Positions 39,236-47,430 of a stretch of DNA of 64,000 bases are shown in pieces. Origin of the DNA: Escherichia phage vB_EcoM_005. Each line of letters begins with the position of its first letter. Positions within the stretch are counted from its first letter, which is position 1. The notes beneath the pieces were generated by a model that was given only the letters and a program-made list of their open reading frames with translations, had not been told where the DNA came from and did no database searches. Made by a program: the position numbers and the translations under genes. The stretch lies in the sequence record MK295203; one strand, 5' to 3'.

Positions 39236-39266
39236 GTTTACAACCCTCAGAGGACAGGGTATAATG
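39236..39266 (+). promoter_or_regulatory. early promoter (GTTTAC / TATAAT)
   Basis: GTTTAC 39236-39241, 18-nt spacer, GGTATAAT. Confidence 0.5.
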
Positions 39267-39307: not shown

Positions 39308-39901
39308 ATGAACACTTTAAAGAAAATCGTTGAATTCATCCGTTCTAAACTGGGTACTGCAATGGCTCAGAACCTGTCAATCGAAGACCAATACACCAAA
39401 GCTGCTTCTACCCTGATTGATAAAATCACTGAACTCCAGACTGCTCATGTTAAGTCTGTGAATGAAGAAAAACGTATTCGTGCGTTGGCTAATGAAAAAG
39501 ACCAGCTCGCTGCTTCTAAAGAACGTGAAATTCGTAAACTGATTGCCGAAGGCGCTGATGTCCAGGTACATGCTAAACTTGGCCTCCTTTATCGTCGTAC
39601 AGCTACTCAGCTTCGTAAGAAAGCTGATGATTATATCGAAATGCGTAATGAAATTAAACTGAAGGTTAAGGAACTTGATGACTCTCGTCAGGAACTGGCT
39701 GTTAAGCTCGAGTACATCCGTGAAACTCGTAATATGGCTGCCCTTGGTATTGCTACTGCTGATGATGTTGTTGAAATTGCTGCACTGACCAAGATTGATA
39801 TCGAAGACACCCTGATGCGTGTAGAAACGTTTAAAGGCCCACAAGTTGGAATGGATACGACTTCTGCTGATATCGAAGACTACATTAATTCACTTAAGTA
39901 A
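39308..39901 (+). CDS. coiled-coil protein, 197 aa
   Basis: Long heptad-like helical sequence; function unknown. Confidence 0.5.
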
Positions 39902-39949: not shown

Positions 39950-40486
39950 ATGAGTTTATACGACGACCTGATATCAAATATTGATTGGTTTAAACATAGT
40001 GGTCTTTCACATGAAACTAATGCAGTTCTTTATAGAATTCGCCAAGACCTAGGTTATTCAAACGATTTCTTAAGCAGAACATCTAGCCGTGGGCATACTA
40101 CCAAATTACCCTTTATCTTTGCTTTAGCTGAGGACCTTTCTTTTGCAGATGCTTTAGAAATTATTGACCTTGAATTAGGTATACAACGTGTGGAGTTCGC
40201 TGGGCTACGCTATTCAGTATACTCTTTAAATGAACCAAGCGATTATAAACAGCTTGTTGATGCCGACGATGATTACCATTTAGTATGCTATTTGATGTTA
40301 GAAAATGGTGACCACTTTGGTATGGTCGACCGTCGCCCGAGTTATTCGGATATTAAAAATTACGATAAAGATGAGCTTATTATTTTGGCTAATGAGTATA
40401 CATCAGAGATTCGAAAACAACAACGGAAGCTTAATCGTTTTATTGCTGAATGCCGCGAATACGCTAAAGAGGTTCGTAATGTATAA
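39950..40486 (+). CDS. hypothetical protein (178 aa)
   Basis: ATG after GGAGGAGAGGAG; no recognisable motif. Confidence 0.55.
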   Translation: MSLYDDLISNIDWFKHSGLSHETNAVLYRIRQDLGYSNDFLSRTSSRGHTTKLPFIFALAEDLSFADALEIIDLELGIQRVEFAGLRYSVYSLNEPSDYKQLVDADDDYHLVCYLMLENGDHFGMVDRRPSYSDIKNYDKDELIILANEYTSEIRKQQRKLNRFIAECREYAKEVRNV

Positions 40487-40832
40487 GCCTAGTAAAACCG
40501 ACCCTGGTTACGCATTAGCAGATTATGATATAGCTATTTCATTATTCCTCGGCATTGCTACTAGTATGGTTGCAGGGATAATTGGATTTCTTGTCGGCGG
40601 GATTATTAATGGTATGCCTCGCCATCCGTTTGAAGATATGAGCCTCGCGTGGATTTGGGTTCCAGCTTTAATAGGATACTTTATCCCAGTGGTCTTTGAT
40701 ATTACCCAAACCAATAAAATAAACAAGCCACGTAAAAAGAGATATGCTTTAGAGATGGCTAATTATAATGAGTATGTAAAACAAACCAAACGTAATGACC
40801 TTGAAACCTTTATTAAGGAATGTAAATCATGA
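40479..40832 (+). CDS. membrane protein with C-terminal ...ETFIKECKS (paralog of 45357..45944)
   Basis: Two TM segments; C-terminal motif shared with 45357..45944 (...NSFIKECRK). Confidence 0.55.
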   Translation: MYKPSKTDPGYALADYDIAISLFLGIATSMVAGIIGFLVGGIINGMPRHPFEDMSLAWIWVPALIGYFIPVVFDITQTNKINKPRKKRYALEMANYNEYVKQTKRNDLETFIKECKS

Positions 40833-41119
40833 ATAAAATTGAAATTGAAATCCCTGAATACAACAGCGCGCTGTCTGCAGAAAAGGCTATCTATGACCTG
40901 CTGGGTAAAGTAGACACCATCGAATCCAAATGTGAAGAAATCGCAGATGAATATGGTATTGAATTCAGCACAGGTGATTATGGTTCAGGCCGTACATATT
41001 ATCCTGTCGGTTATGAATGCTCCCAGTGGTTTAAAGATGAAATTGAAAACAACGGTGGTGAAGTTGAAAACGGCGTCGTTACAGTTGGTGCTTGGGTCTC
41101 CTCTTCAGCAATGTGCTAA
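40829..41119 (+). CDS. small acidic protein, WxSS..C-terminus family, member A
   Basis: Ends GAWVSSSAMC; stop TAA overlaps next RBS TAAGGA. Confidence 0.6.
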   Translation: MNKIEIEIPEYNSALSAEKAIYDLLGKVDTIESKCEEIADEYGIEFSTGDYGSGRTYYPVGYECSQWFKDEIENNGGEVENGVVTVGAWVSSSAMC

Positions 41120-41128
41120 GGAAACGCT

Positions 41129-41410
41129 ATGATGAATGATTACCGTAAAAATAAAGAACTGGCTGAAGCAGTAAATGATATCCATAAAGCTATTCGTCGT
41201 GCTGAGGAAATTGCAAACAAATATGAGACTCATTTTAATATATACCCTGCTCGCGGTATGGGCGGTGACTATTATTCTCCTGGCGCCTTGAAAGCCGACC
41301 TTGCCCACTGGGAAGAATACGGTGAAGCTCAGTATGCTATTGTAAACCAACATGATTACACTACCAGCCTAGAAAATGGTGGATGGGTGTCCTCTTCTTC
41401 TGAATGTTAA
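41129..41410 (+). CDS. small acidic protein, WxSS..C-terminus family, member B
   Basis: Ends GGWVSSSSEC; TAAGGA coupling. Confidence 0.6.
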   Translation: MMNDYRKNKELAEAVNDIHKAIRRAEEIANKYETHFNIYPARGMGGDYYSPGALKADLAHWEEYGEAQYAIVNQHDYTTSLENGGWVSSSSEC

Positions 41411-41419
41411 GGAATTATT

Positions 41420-41617
41420 ATGTCTCGTGAACTAGATTGTGCAATCCGTACTGCAGCCGCAGCTATTGAAAACGTTATCCAGATTTGTAAAGAAGAACGC
41501 GAAGAAGCTGATATCTATATCGATGGCGCTCGTGACCTAGAACGACATATCACGCTTTATAACGGTTGTATTACTATTAGTGGTACTTCCTGGGTATCAT
41601 CCTCTTACGAATGCTAA
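41420..41617 (+). CDS. small acidic protein, WxSS..C-terminus family, member C
   Basis: Ends TSWVSSSYEC; TAAGGA coupling. Confidence 0.6.
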   Translation: MSRELDCAIRTAAAAIENVIQICKEEREEADIYIDGARDLERHITLYNGCITISGTSWVSSSYEC

Positions 41618-41626
41618 GGAAATAAA

Positions 41627-41836
41627 ATGACTATTGATGAAATTGAAAAACAAATCCGCGAATTAGTACGTAAAGGCCAGTCCGTGGCTGACGAAACAGG
41701 TCAGCACTTCCACGCTGGAGGCGAAGAATATATTCCAGCTTCTAGTCCGGAATATGATGATTACGAATGGGCCCGTGATGATTACGGTATCCCAGATGGT
41801 GAAGGTTTCTGGTTTACATCCTCTATGTCTTGCTAA
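41627..41836 (+). CDS. small acidic protein, WxSS..C-terminus family, member D
   Basis: Ends GFWFTSSMSC; TAAGG coupling. Confidence 0.6.
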   Translation: MTIDEIEKQIRELVRKGQSVADETGQHFHAGGEEYIPASSPEYDDYEWARDDYGIPDGEGFWFTSSMSC

Positions 41837-41846
41837 GGTGATAAAA

Positions 41847-42071
41847 ATGTCTGATATTAATGAATTAGAAAAAGCGGCACTTGAACTGGCTGCACTGTAT
41901 AAGAAAGTAAAAGATATGGCTTCTGCTCAGGATTTCCGTGTTGAGCTCGATGATTATGACGGTGAAGTTCGTCTCGAAGATTGGCTGAATAGCTCTTGTT
42001 ATGGTGAAGAAGCTGGTCGCACCTTCGTTGCTCAGGCCGATGGTAAAATCTGGTATCCTAGCTCATGCTAA
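41847..42071 (+). CDS. small acidic protein, WxSS..C-terminus family, member E
   Basis: Internal ATG of ORF 41754..42071; ends KIWYPSSC. Confidence 0.55.
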   Translation: MSDINELEKAALELAALYKKVKDMASAQDFRVELDDYDGEVRLEDWLNSSCYGEEAGRTFVAQADGKIWYPSSC

Positions 42072-42954: not shown

Positions 42955-43818
42955 ATGATGTTAGTTATTGGTTCTCGTGCACTGCACCACGCTGGTCTGA
43001 TTGAAAGTAAGCATATCGAAAATTCTGATTGGGATTTCATTGCCGACCAAGGTTCATGGAACCATTTTAAAGCTCGGATGTTTGGTGCCCATGTTTCTGT
43101 GGATAATCCTGATGTCCAGGCTTTTAAATGCATGTACAACGGTAAAGAAACCTATTTTGAAGCATATATCGTTCGTGCTCTGACTAACGTACGAGAAATT
43201 ACCGGCGAGCTTCAAGACGAAGATTTCACCTCAAGTTATCGTCTCCTGAAATATGCCGAAAATCATATTAAAAAGGACCGTCTTACAGGTTTCTATTGGG
43301 CTACGCCTGATATCTGTCTGGCTATCAAAACCTCTCATCGTTTCCTGAAGAATAATCCTTTCTTCTTGAAAACTATGTCCCACATCAAATACCTTCGTAA
43401 TAAAGGTACCACCTTGAATGAAGAACTCCAGGAAATTATGCTGCAACGTCAAAAAGAAACGTTGAGCTATTCCCATCCTAAATTGGATGTAAACAAATCA
43501 TCGTTCTTTAATGATACCATGGAGAAGTTCGAGGCTTTGCCTGAAGCTATTAAATTGGCTGGTGTGTATGAAGAAACCTGTGTCCTGGCACTAGAACGTT
43601 CACAGGTTCCTAATGACTTCAATATTTCACCATCATTAAGTTTCTATATGGCTCTTGAGAAAGTGTGTACCTCAATCACTTCAGGTTGGTTCCGCACTTA
43701 TGCATGGGAAAACTACCAAGCTGTGGTTAATATGTACAAGACTTTAGGTGAAAGTGACTACATTGAACGATTTAAACGTAATCAACATCTTATTAAACCT
43801 TTCAAAAAGGCTGAGTAA
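42955..43818 (+). CDS. hypothetical protein (287 aa), possible nucleotidyltransferase-like N-terminus
   Basis: Internal ATGATG start after GAGGAAAA; N-terminal LVIGSRALHH...SDWDF loosely resembles a GS...DxD motif. Confidence 0.5.
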   Translation: MMLVIGSRALHHAGLIESKHIENSDWDFIADQGSWNHFKARMFGAHVSVDNPDVQAFKCMYNGKETYFEAYIVRALTNVREITGELQDEDFTSSYRLLKYAENHIKKDRLTGFYWATPDICLAIKTSHRFLKNNPFFLKTMSHIKYLRNKGTTLNEELQEIMLQRQKETLSYSHPKLDVNKSSFFNDTMEKFEALPEAIKLAGVYEETCVLALERSQVPNDFNISPSLSFYMALEKVCTSITSGWFRTYAWENYQAVVNMYKTLGESDYIERFKRNQHLIKPFKKAE

Positions 43819-44468
43819 TGGGACGGCCTCTAAAAGATTTAACCGGACAGGTTATAAATGGTATTAAATTTTTATCGGTGGCCTATAAAGCCACCGGATC
43901 GCCAACCAAGTGGCTTTTATTGTGCCATTGCGGTGAAGAATTCGTTACCACCGCCTCTAGAATAAAAACAGGAAAAACAAAATCATGCGGCTGTGAAAGA
44001 TACCATTATTCCTTTATAAAGAATAGGTATACATATTCCTCATATTCTGCTATGATTGCTAGATGTACAGACCCTAAACATAAAGCCTATCCCGCCTACG
44101 GTGGTAATGGTATAGTTGTTTGTGACGAGTGGCTTCCTAAAGGAAAGAAAGGGTATTTAAAATTTGTCGAGGATATGGGCGAGAGACCTAAAGGGACTTC
44201 AATAAATCGAATAGGTTCTGTTAAAAGGTATAGCAAAGAAACTTGTGAGTGGGCTCCATTTACAATGCAATCATTTGACCAAAGAACGCGTCATGATTCA
44301 CCGGGTCCTATTTCAGGAGTTGTATATAGAAAAGATAGAAATAAATGGGTAGCTTCTATAACAGTAGAAGGCGAAGCCATAGGGCTATATTATGGTGATA
44401 CTGAAAGCGAAGCGATAGAGGCTAGAAAACAAGCTGAACTTAAATATTTTGGAAGATTTAAGTCATAA
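43818..44468 (+). CDS. AP2-domain DNA-binding protein (homing-endonuclease-like)
   Basis: C-terminal ...GVVYRKDRNKWVASITVEGEAIGLYYGDTESEAIEARKQAELKYFG AP2-type motif; Cys-rich N-terminus. Confidence 0.55.
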   Translation: MGRPLKDLTGQVINGIKFLSVAYKATGSPTKWLLLCHCGEEFVTTASRIKTGKTKSCGCERYHYSFIKNRYTYSSYSAMIARCTDPKHKAYPAYGGNGIVVCDEWLPKGKKGYLKFVEDMGERPKGTSINRIGSVKRYSKETCEWAPFTMQSFDQRTRHDSPGPISGVVYRKDRNKWVASITVEGEAIGLYYGDTESEAIEARKQAELKYFGRFKS

Positions 44469-44473
44469 AAGTT

Positions 44474-44514
44474 GTTTACAAGGTCTATAGGTGTGATACT
44501 ATAGACCTATCAAA
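44474..44514 (+). promoter_or_regulatory. early promoter cassette (PeSL-like)
   Basis: Near-identical to the 35429 cassette. Confidence 0.6.
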
Positions 44515-44766: not shown

Positions 44767-45357
44767 ATGAACGGTCCAAAAACTTTTAATTCTCAAGCTC
44801 GTGCAGTCGGTGGTTTTGCTCAAGATATCAGTAATGATATGATTAAAAATGAGCCTATGTTCTTTAATTGCGATGCTTATTTTGCTCATAAACACGGCGG
44901 TCCTATTACTCGTAGCTTTATTGAAAACCTGCCTGAAGATTGGCAATGTGGCCCTGATATTGTATTTGATTCCCGTGTACACATGTTAATGCCTGGCTGG
45001 TACCCTGCAATTCCAGGCTTCCACCATGATGATGTACCACGTCCGGATATTCCGGTCGGCCAACACTTTATTACCGCAGGGCAGCCTGATTATGATAATC
45101 CTCGTTACCATTCTGAACATATTCTTGGTCTTGTTAACGCTGGAATTGAGTCCAATGAATTAACCAAGTGGGATGCTCCTGACCGCACGTTGCTCCAGTT
45201 TGATTGGCAGACGTGGCATACCGGTTCTCGTGCAGTAAGTAATGGTTGGCGCTGGTTTGGTCGTGTCTCTCGTAATACTGACCGTGTTAAAAAGATTACT
45301 AATGAAATCCGTGTTAATGCTCAAGTTTATCTGGAATTCCCTATGGAGGGCTGGTAA
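44767..45357 (+). CDS. hypothetical protein (196 aa), possible Fe/2OG-oxygenase-like
   Basis: FHHDD...WHTGSR...RWFGRVSR resembles HxD...H...R arrangement; unverified. Confidence 0.5.
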   Translation: MNGPKTFNSQARAVGGFAQDISNDMIKNEPMFFNCDAYFAHKHGGPITRSFIENLPEDWQCGPDIVFDSRVHMLMPGWYPAIPGFHHDDVPRPDIPVGQHFITAGQPDYDNPRYHSEHILGLVNAGIESNELTKWDAPDRTLLQFDWQTWHTGSRAVSNGWRWFGRVSRNTDRVKKITNEIRVNAQVYLEFPMEGW

Positions 45358-45944
45358 TGGCCCTTTATGAACCTGGGTGTATGGGCATTGATGCAAACTT
45401 CATCCGTCGGTCGGAAAATGCTGGAATTATTATCCCAAGTGGTGAGAATATGATTATTAAAAAGTCCTGGCGAAATATCGATGACTGTGATGAAGGAATT
45501 TCAGCCAGTACAATAGATTGGTCAGGTTGTACTGCCGAAATGAAACAGCTTTTAATTGAGGAATATAAAATGGGCTATATTGTAAACGGCTGGCAAGCGG
45601 AACCACATAAAGAACAGACTCCAGACCCATTGATTTGTTATAGCAAAAAATACGGCTTCCGTGCCTGGAGTGATGAATACGACAAATTGGTGAGTTCTAG
45701 ATTCTATGTTTGGATGGGTATATTATTTTTCCCACTCCTAGGGTTTTTCCTGACAACAGATAATGACCTGCCTATTTGTGTATTCGCTTCAGCGATGTCT
45801 GCTGCTATCTTAGGTCTTATCGCATCATTTTTATGGACCTCTGTTATCGAAGTACCTTTTCGTATTTCTAAAGTTAAAAAGGTATATGACGATATCACTA
45901 AGAAAAATACATTAAACTCTTTTATTAAGGAATGCCGTAAATGA
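45357..45944 (+). CDS. membrane protein with C-terminal ...NSFIKECRK (paralog of 40479..40832)
   Basis: Two TM segments in C-terminal half; shared C-terminal motif. Confidence 0.55.
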   Translation: MALYEPGCMGIDANFIRRSENAGIIIPSGENMIIKKSWRNIDDCDEGISASTIDWSGCTAEMKQLLIEEYKMGYIVNGWQAEPHKEQTPDPLICYSKKYGFRAWSDEYDKLVSSRFYVWMGILFFPLLGFFLTTDNDLPICVFASAMSAAILGLIASFLWTSVIEVPFRISKVKKVYDDITKKNTLNSFIKECRK

Positions 45945-46649: not shown

Positions 46650-47081
46650 ATGGATATTTTTGATATGTTACGTCAAGACGAAGGTCTTGATTTAAATCTT
46701 TATAAAGACACTGAAGGTTATTGGACTATTGGTATTGGCCAATTGATTACTAAGAACCCTTCTAAAGATGTTGCTCGTGCTGAACTTGATAAGCTTATGG
46801 GTCGAGTTTGTAATGGTCGTATTACTATGGCTGAAGCTGAACAACTCTTTAACCGATCGGTTGAAAATGCTCGTAGAGCTATTCTGCGTAATCCTAAATT
46901 GAAACCTGTTTATGATGTACTGGACGAAGTTCGTCGTTGTGCTTTAATTAACATGGTCTTCCAAATGGGTGAAGCAGGCGTAGCAGGGTTCACTAACTCT
47001 TTACGTATGCTCCAACAGAAACGTTGGAACGATGCGGCAGTTAACCTGGTTTATCGCAGAGAATGTAATTCCTGCATCTAA
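46650..47081 (+). CDS. e: lysozyme (endolysin) e, C-terminally truncated
   Basis: [33 protein letters not shown]... matches T4 lysozyme to ...AAVNL then diverges and stops (143 aa versus 164). Confidence 0.85.
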
Positions 47082-47094
47082 AGAACTTTTGGCG

Positions 47095-47430
47095 ATGTTT
47101 GAATCTGAAGAGTTCACTGAAGAACTGAATGAGAACCTGACCCAGGCCACTCCTCAGGTTATTCGCGTTCGTAACGCTCTGCAGACAGGCATGCAGGCCC
47201 GCGTATCTAAGACTATGAAGCTGGCATTCACCACTTCTAAAAATGAAGACTATGGCGACGGTATTGCAATGAACACTGGACAGTATTATGTCGAGTGGAA
47301 TGGTGAAACCGGTACGGCTAAGATTCGTCAGACACGTGCAGCGGGTGGTAAAATGTTAGACCTTAAACTGAACGTTAAAGAGAAAGACGTCGCGGCTTTG
47401 TTCAAGAATTGGATGAAAACCTACAAATAA
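47095..47430 (+). CDS. hypothetical protein (111 aa) ending in a stray MKTYK leader fragment
   Basis: ORF replaces the 3' end of e; last codons ATGAAAACCTACAAATAA look like the start of an internal-protein gene. Confidence 0.4.
   Translation: MFESEEFTEELNENLTQATPQVIRVRNALQTGMQARVSKTMKLAFTTSKNEDYGDGIAMNTGQYYVEWNGETGTAKIRQTRAAGGKMLDLKLNVKEKDVAALFKNWMKTYK

Follow-up and report, generated by a model that had tools for sequence, protein, structure and literature searches.

Why two otherwise diverged phage membrane proteins should end in nearly the same peptide is the question raised by a 64,000-nucleotide stretch of Escherichia phage vB_EcoM_005 (sequence record MK295203), called the window below. 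Two of its open reading frames (ORFs), identified here as homologs of T4 e.2 and e.3, encode proteins ending in ...LNSFIKECRK and ...LETFIKECKS, respectively (Table 1). The initial annotation described them as paralogs with two transmembrane helices each and a conserved cytoplasmic C-terminal tag, and proposed a shared partner or a function such as superinfection exclusion or lysis timing. Both ORFs and both ends were verified, and Kyte-Doolittle profiles placed two transmembrane helices in each protein (residues 22-40 and 55-73 in the e.3 homolog; see Table 1 for e.2). We found that a third window protein carries the tag and that it recurs throughout the e.2-e.5 cluster of T4-type phages. Our preferred reading, to which we give a probability of about 55%, is that the tag is a cytoplasmic helix-end motif by which early-transcribed proteins would dock or assemble on a putative partner.

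A C-terminal tag common to the e.2-e.5 cluster

The six-frame translation of the window contained only three copies of FIxEC. Three copies of the stricter pattern F[IV]x[ED]C[RK] were present as opposed to 0.14 expected from composition, and none of 200 codon shuffles reached three. All three copies lie no more than nine residues from the stop codon of a long plus-strand ORF, for which about 0.002 would be expected. The third copy, absent from the initial annotation, closes the product of the gene at the e.5 position (39950..40486, ending in ...LNRFIAECREYAKEVRNV). In the whole T4 genome, also read in six frames, the strict motif occurred only in e.5, e.3 and e.2. The consecutive T4 genes e.5 (..EKFVKECREYVKAITIPSK), e.4 (..MKFVKESRCKSQS, with the cysteine shifted), e.3 (..KEFVIDCRKIK) and e.2 (..NNFITECRKLK) all end in the tag, and RB69 has a fifth tagged member, ORF133c (..LENFIKECRGK).

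Among more distant Straboviridae, we inspected Klebsiella phage Roth68, Enterobacter phage ZX14, Citrobacter phage Moon, Yersinia phage phiR1-RT, Aeromonas phage 44RR2 and RB43, in each of which one to five ORFs 3' of e.6 end in [FW][IV]xxC[RK]. The location 3' of e.6 was constant in Tequatrovirus, Mosigvirus, Dhakavirus, Roth68, Kanagawavirus ZX14, Moonvirus, Tegunavirus, Biquartavirus 44RR2 and Pseudotevenvirus RB43. We define the tag-bearing e.2-e.5 group here by the pattern hydrophobic-x-x-F-[I/V]-x-x-C-[R/K], located at most about 25 residues from the C-terminus of a protein encoded 3' of e.6; all three window proteins and 32 tails from 10 lineages have these features.

The consensus of the tails was hydrophobic(-3)-[E/N/D](-2)-x-F(0)-[I/V](+1)-x-[E/D](+3)-C(+4)-[R/K](+5). 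Position -3 was hydrophobic in 32 of the 32 aligned tails, although it lay outside the search pattern, and position -2 was mostly E, N or D. The x position was occupied by K, E, T, A, M, I or S, with F, I/V, C and R/K constant, and the distance from tag to stop was 1, 3, 9-15 or 25 residues. Within each family the tag was invariant although the bodies fall to 38-53% identity, which bears out the description of a conserved tag on otherwise diverged proteins and fits the idea of a shared partner. Position +3 was E or D in all 18 tags of Tequatrovirus, Mosigvirus and Dhakavirus, compared with 1 of 16 in other genera; such lineage-concerted variation would be expected if paralogous tags track one partner. 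The tag is a protein-level motif common to the whole e.2-e.5 cluster of T4-type phages.

A search of 5.8 billion proteins with a profile of the tail retrieved only fragments of the e.2, e.3, e.4, e.5 and ORF133c families, the short profile having low power and leaving absence of the tag outside T4-type phages unproven. Scanning IMG/VR with the e.3 alignment found only eight Dhakavirus loci.

Identity of the tagged genes

A 6.8-kb stretch around the e.2 and e.3 homologs was 90-96% identical to Dhakavirus genomes (Bp7, JS98, IME08 and WG01), which identifies the source of the window as a T4-like Dhakavirus of the JS98/Bp7 type. The e.2 homolog matched phrog_2203 over residues 32-195 (E = 3.6e-70), and PF26896 is precomputed on all of its close homologs. 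Its counterparts in Bp7 and JS98 are annotated as e.2, 'conserved hypothetical predicted membrane protein', and a tblastn search matched RB51 and T4-type e.2 with 30% identity over 84% of the query. The gene is followed on the same strand by a 78-residue ORF, a Nudix gene (nudE/e.1; Pfam NUDIX E = 7.6e-15) and the lysozyme gene e at 46650, and the order from e.2 to e is also found in Bp7, JS98 and RB69. Family match and position upstream of nudE and e together identify this gene as the homolog of T4 e.2.

The second protein matched phrog_2330 over its full length (E = 1.9e-43) and, by tblastn, e.3 of RB69 (31% identity, E = 2e-5) and of T4 (E = 2e-3). It also matches JS98 orf130, and the annotation in VR5 reads 'similar to T4 E.3'. 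By these matches it is a homolog of T4/RB69 e.3. Searches of Pfam-A, NCBIfam and PDB sequences gave no match for the three tagged window proteins.

The tail of the e.5-position protein, FIAECREYAK, resembles those of e.5 from T4 (FVKECREYVK) and RB69 (FIMECREYVK). Proteins at the e.5 position are weakly and colinearly similar across genera (Roth68-ZX14, E = 2.5e-9; 44RR2-Roth68, E = 1e-4; RB69-ZX14, E = 4e-3; Dhaka-Roth68, E = 8e-3), suggesting that the window gene is an e.5 ortholog that evolves fast and has kept the tag better than any other part. The product is the positional, and probably a divergent, ortholog of T4 e.5.

At their extreme ends, Dhakavirus e.5 and e.4 proteins share the peptide KEV(R/Q)N, specified by the initiation regions of e.4 and e.3, which are nearly identical (AARGAGGTTCRWAATG). 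The JS98-type e.5 end (40457..40486 in the window) joins the left portion of the e.5 end of VR26 to the right portion of its e.4 end. Because this end is a hybrid of VR26-type e.5 and e.4 ends, we suggest that e.4 was lost, as in the window, by recombination between the two initiation repeats. A protein of phage OLB35 looks like an e.3/e.4 chimera.

The e.2-e.5 genes are known families with no assigned function, and the shared tail relating them is a modest new observation. In the limited literature and library material searched, we found no description of the shared tail, of its breadth across Straboviridae or of its dual coding with a Shine-Dalgarno site.

Protein motif and ribosome-binding site

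In the e.2 and e.3 homologs, the tag codons AAG GAA form the hexamer AAGGAA (45927..45932 and 40815..40820, respectively) 8 nucleotides before a downstream ATG (45941 and 40829), which indicates that both tags contain the ribosome-binding site of the gene that follows. The codons TTT ATT AAG GAA TG(T/C) are used in both ORFs, and the downstream gene overlaps as ATGA. The tag could then be a by-product of constraint on DNA or RNA, its codons merely providing the overlapping gene with a Shine-Dalgarno site and spacer (AAGGAA-N8-ATG). Consistent with this explanation, TTTATTAAGGAATG(T/C) is identical in both window ORFs with AAGGAA exactly 8 nucleotides from ATG, the x codon of most e.2 relatives is GAG, which is likewise a purine-rich Shine-Dalgarno element, and the KEV(R/Q)N ends described above are clearly products of an initiation region.

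However, the codon evidence runs against it. The e.5 tags lie 30-75 nucleotides 5' of the next start codon with GCT, ACT, AAA or ATG as the x codon, and F-I-x-E-C-R is kept. In T4-type e.2 and e.3, which carry two additional residues, the Shine-Dalgarno site has moved two codons downstream to Arg(AGG)-Lys(AAA) and the peptide is unchanged; where the stop comes earlier after the tag, Arg is spelled CGT or AGA, and Lys/Glu-Glu codons supply the Shine-Dalgarno site. Furthermore, the Arg codons vary (CGT, CGC, AGG, AGA and CGA), with CGT differing from AGG or AGA at two to three nucleotides, the Cys codons TGT and TGC alternate even in close relatives, and no Shine-Dalgarno site includes F, I or the hydrophobic position -3. 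A constant peptide with changing spelling and changing register to the next start argues that selection acts on the protein and that synonymous codon choice makes room for the Shine-Dalgarno site. We therefore rejected the pure initiation-region explanation, which is very unlikely to account for the tag; by its codon usage, the nucleotide constraint is secondary. The locus is a clear example of dual coding: the same codons spell a protein motif and hold the ribosome-binding site for the gene that follows, and the Arg codon (AGG or CGT) tracks the position of the Shine-Dalgarno site.

Similarity between the e.2 and e.3 proteins

The paralogy proposed for the two proteins was weakened by alignment. 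Pairwise BLASTP between the e.2 and e.3 homologs aligned only the last 18 residues (10 of 18 identical, E = 2e-4). Comparison by hhalign of family alignments restricted to Dhakavirus gave 42 columns with a probability of 64% (E = 6.6e-5). With T4, RB69 and other members added, the probability rose to 91% (E = 1e-6), and the confident part after realignment was 17 tail residues. An e.3 profile searched against 1.84 billion representative proteins retrieved seven clusters, all of them e.3-like and ending in variants of the tag (FIKECKS, FIDDCKNWR, FVRDCRKTK and FIREVRNAKTR), and no e.2 or e.4. Since the alignment is confined to the tail, the tail is the only statistically secure similarity between the two proteins, and no significant similarity was found between their bodies, the very outcome that the initial annotation had named as refuting its proposal.

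A nucleotide comparison of the two window tails gave an identity of just 14 nucleotides, which is explained by codon bias, and the flanking codons differ. Recent gene conversion between these tails was rejected on these grounds.

The tag could also be a mere relic of descent, with no shared partner involved, if the C-terminal half of e.2 and the e.3, e.4 and RB69 ORF133c proteins were tandem-duplicated paralogs in which the tail is the slowest-evolving segment. All of them share two transmembrane helices, a basic tail of 40-45 residues and the tag, the T4 genes adjoin as e.5-e.4-e.3-e.2, and e.3 and e.4 have KPS/PSKP peptides in common at their N-termini. Besides the e.3-e.2 value given above, hhalign gave a probability of 91% for e.3-e.4 over 113 colinear columns and 89% for e.3-ORF133c. 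However, removal of the tag lowered the probability to 12% for e.2-e.3 (E = 2e-3), to 26% for e.3-e.4 (E = 7e-4, 86 colinear columns) and to about 0 for ORF133c. In addition, the soluble e.5 proteins bear the same tag although they have no transmembrane hairpin, and neutral remnants are not expected to stay invariant while the Arg codons turn over completely. We consider a relic of descent a rather unlikely explanation by itself; descent is compatible with function and complements the docking proposal rather than replacing it. From the shared architecture and the tandem position in T4, a common origin of the module of two transmembrane helices, basic helix and tag is plausible.

Topology and a proposed docking role

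A K/R-rich tail follows each hairpin, with 9 K+R to 4 D+E in the e.2 homolog and 11 to 6 in the e.3 homolog. The positive-inside rule, the short acidic loop between the helices and the 115-residue N-domain of e.2, which has no signal peptide, point to an N-in/C-in hairpin and agree with the cytoplasmic tail of the initial annotation. A cytoplasmic location also fits the tagged protein at the e.5 position, which has no transmembrane segment. In an AlphaFold2 (AF2) model of the e.2 homolog, the tail forms a single helix continuous with the second transmembrane helix (residues 140-194), and 10-residue blocks over residues 141-195 had mean predicted local distance difference test (pLDDT) values of 63-81.

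Positions -3, 0, +1 and +4 of the tag fall on one helical face, suggesting that a helix-packing interface is the most likely mechanism. Judged from the alignments, this face, the cysteine and the Arg/Lys are under strong purifying selection. Early transcription of the tagged genes is likely, given their T4-like strand orientation and two promoter-like sites (Table 1). According to the docking proposal, the e.2 and e.3 products are probably inner-membrane proteins of early-transcribed genes, each with an N-in/C-in hairpin of two helices, and after the second transmembrane helix the chain would continue as a basic cytoplasmic α-helix of about 40 residues ending in the tag. Through the tag face the proteins would dock either onto a single common partner or onto one another, bringing soluble e.5 together with membrane-bound e.2 and e.3 (and e.4, where present) at the inner membrane. 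Carrying a ribosome-binding site in the same codons would be a secondary, accommodated constraint. The invariance of the cysteine outside e.4-type proteins could, speculatively, hint at a chemical role involving a metal or a thiol.

Several points weigh against this proposal. The e.2 and e.3 tags extend into the region where translation of the following gene is initiated, and part of their invariance thus reflects dual constraint. The e.4-type proteins have V, M, S or I in place of the cysteine at +4, indicating that it is not indispensable or structurally obligatory in every member. Gene conversion between tags could be an alternative source of the concerted variation at +3, and the AF2 model of e.2 has a low overall confidence (mean pLDDT 61). 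Furthermore, e.2 is split in the T4 reference (AF158101.6 67472..67960, minus strand), where the annotated 102-residue coding sequence lacks the second transmembrane helix and the tag, both of which are found in a separate 51-residue ORF. The gene is intact (162 residues) in wV7, PhiZZ30, G3F8 and DalCa. The frameshift in the T4 reference suggests that e.2 is dispensable in the laboratory.

A position near the C-terminus and a basic end (CRK, CRKLK) could instead mark the tag as a proteolytic or turnover signal that restricts early proteins to a time window. The basic end loosely resembles basic C-terminal ClpX signals, a likeness that we take as a lead only. However, e.5-type tags lie 9-25 residues from the C-terminus, and a one-sided hydrophobic pattern with an invariant cysteine is not a feature of known C-terminal degrons, which makes a degron highly improbable.

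Candidate partner e.6

A tagged gene lies directly after e.6 in all nine lineages inspected, and e.6 itself is present in 1109 phage records. A single-sequence AF2 model of e.6 showed a long helical hairpin with core pLDDT > 90. A Foldseek search of the PDB with this model returned Vipp1 as the top hit (7o3w_A, E = 5.6e-4), followed by 7o3x, 9eom, 8qbr and 6zvr; template-modelling scores were low, at about 0.35-0.5 (0.35 for 7o3w_A), with chemoreceptor and SMC coiled coils close behind. The e.6 family profile was colinear with Vipp1/sll0617 among PDB sequences (3-140 with 3-142), but at E = 0.09-0.2, and a Pfam PspA_IM30 match of e.6 was looked for and not found. The model suggests that e.6 may be a phage ESCRT-III-like protein of the PspA/Vipp1 type, which we regard as a lead rather than a finding.

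The tags might then be docking sites for this PspA/Vipp1-like ESCRT-III superfamily protein, with e.6 and e.5-e.2 forming a membrane-maintenance or membrane-remodelling module, although this is unlikely. If it holds, the phage would encode an ESCRT-III-like membrane module in which a conserved effector is recruited or regulated by several quickly evolving membrane adaptors and a single soluble one via one common cytoplasmic helix, and the invariant Cys-Arg would possibly act as a thiol or metal switch.

Features of the locus

The coordinates of the tagged genes, their parts and the associated sites are collected in Table 1.

Table 1. Tagged genes, tags and associated sites in the window
Feature	Position	Strand	Basis or remark
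Promoter-like site of sigma-70/T4-early type, TTTACA-17-TATAAT, 11/12 matches, 5' of e.6, the e.5-position gene and e.3	39237..39265	+	consensus match only
e.6 homolog, conserved coiled-coil hairpin protein, directly 5' of the first tagged gene	39308..39901	+	context and candidate partner only
e.5-position coding sequence, 178 residues, no transmembrane segment, third tag-bearer	39950..40486	+	phrog_8788, Kyte-Doolittle, tail match
e.5-position tag L-N-R-F-I-A-E-C-R, 9 residues before the stop	40430..40456	+	outside the downstream Shine-Dalgarno site AAAGAGG at 40467..40473
e.3 homolog coding sequence, 117 residues, two transmembrane helices, 44-residue basic tail	40479..40832	+	phrog_2330, tblastn, Kyte-Doolittle
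e.3 tag L-E-T-F-I-K-E-C-K-S	40800..40829	+	motif scan
Second promoter-like site of early type, TTTACA-16-TACTAT with TG, 5' of the unit containing e.2	44475..44502	+	consensus match only
e.2 homolog coding sequence, 195 residues	45357..45944	+	phrog_2203, Bp7/JS98 annotation, tblastn, PF26896
Dhakavirus-specific N-terminal extension of e.2, residues 1-31	45357..45449	+	
Soluble N-domain of the e.2 homolog	residues 32-115	+	
Transmembrane hairpin of the e.2 homolog, residues 116-134 and 138-156, short acidic loop TDN	45702..45824	+	Kyte-Doolittle; AF2 helices 105-133 and 140-194
e.2 tag L-N-S-F-I-K-E-C-R-K	45912..45941	+	motif scan

The N-domain of the e.2 homolog had pLDDT values below 50 in the AF2 model, too poor for a fold search. 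The extension of the window protein (MALYEPGCMG..; MLYEVAGDGPG in a metagenomic relative) resembles the N-termini of e.5-position proteins in Roth68 (MLYECAGDIP) and ZX14 (MSFYEGCGPD), which suggests a second short peptide common to otherwise different members of the cluster. Part of the N-domain (residues 26-77, 45450..45590; W..DDGDEGI..VDWSGC) is about 40% identical to an ORF that lies beside a 2OG-Fe(II) oxygenase gene at another locus in Mosigvirus-type phages and also matches phrog_35263, indicating that this domain is found in another context as well.

Between e.3 and e.2, five consecutive small ORFs of 65-105 residues (40829..42071) are paralogs ending in W(V)SSSxxC or ..PSSC (SSSAMC, SSSSEC, SSSYEC, SSMSC and PSSC) and represent a second family with a C-terminal cysteine motif. 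The same family occupies this position in ZX14, Moon and phiR1-RT; its RB69 counterparts are ORF136c-139c. Further downstream, a 216-residue ORF (43818..44468) with a weak AP2-domain match has no Bp7 counterpart at that position and may be an insertion of the homing-endonuclease type. The ORF at 44767..45357 matches phrog_1843 in part as well as phrog_23363, and is shorter than its Bp7 homolog. The lysozyme ORF (46650..47081) has just 143 residues and diverges from the T4 type after ..WNDAAVNL, and its end is overlapped by another ORF (47032..47430). Replacement or a frameshift may have altered the 3' end of e.

Comparison with known systems

Taken together, the tag is a solid if modest observation at the motif level, made in known gene families; the paralogy of the initial annotation is weakened and its functional guess unsupported. 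The e.2-e.8 block is a conserved but functionally blank region of T4, and one tail on four or five products allows several 'hypothetical membrane proteins' that had seemed unrelated to be tested as one system. Neither phenotype data nor functions for T4 e.2-e.6 were found in the literature searched, a body of material that excludes the main T4 review.

T4 Imm, Sp and rI are likewise small, non-essential, early phage proteins at the cell envelope. A role of the tagged proteins in superinfection exclusion or lysis timing, as first proposed, would be in keeping with small inner-membrane proteins that are probably early and lie in a non-essential region, as Imm and rI do, and e.2 carries the PHROG label 'moron, auxiliary metabolic gene and host takeover'. 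However, the motif was absent from all eight T4 proteins in which it was looked for (Imm, Imm.1, Sp, rI, rI.-1, rIII, Ac and T), and BLASTP of the three window proteins against this eight-protein database gave a best E of 0.06, in a transmembrane segment. Sp and rI act in the periplasm as opposed to the cytoplasmic location of the tag, and Imm has no such basic helical tail. A function of this kind is quite unlikely.

The Psp system combines an effector, PspA or Vipp1, with PspB and PspC. A helical hairpin protein, e.6, followed by small inner-membrane proteins with cytoplasmic helices is reminiscent of this arrangement of a peripheral effector and membrane adaptors. However, the link between e.6 and Vipp1 is weak, and the tagged membrane proteins have two transmembrane helices and no similarity to PspB or PspC.

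The e.2/e.3/e.4/e.5 cluster of T4 itself (PHROGs 2203, 2330 and 8788; precomputed PF26896, PF26873 and PF26876) is also among the closest known systems. Compared with T4, the window phage has no e.4, about 4.5 kb of extra genes between e.3 and e.2, as in RB69, and a 31-residue N-terminal extension on e.2. The window shares with T4 the same synteny (e.6 ... nudE, e), the hairpin topology and the tail.

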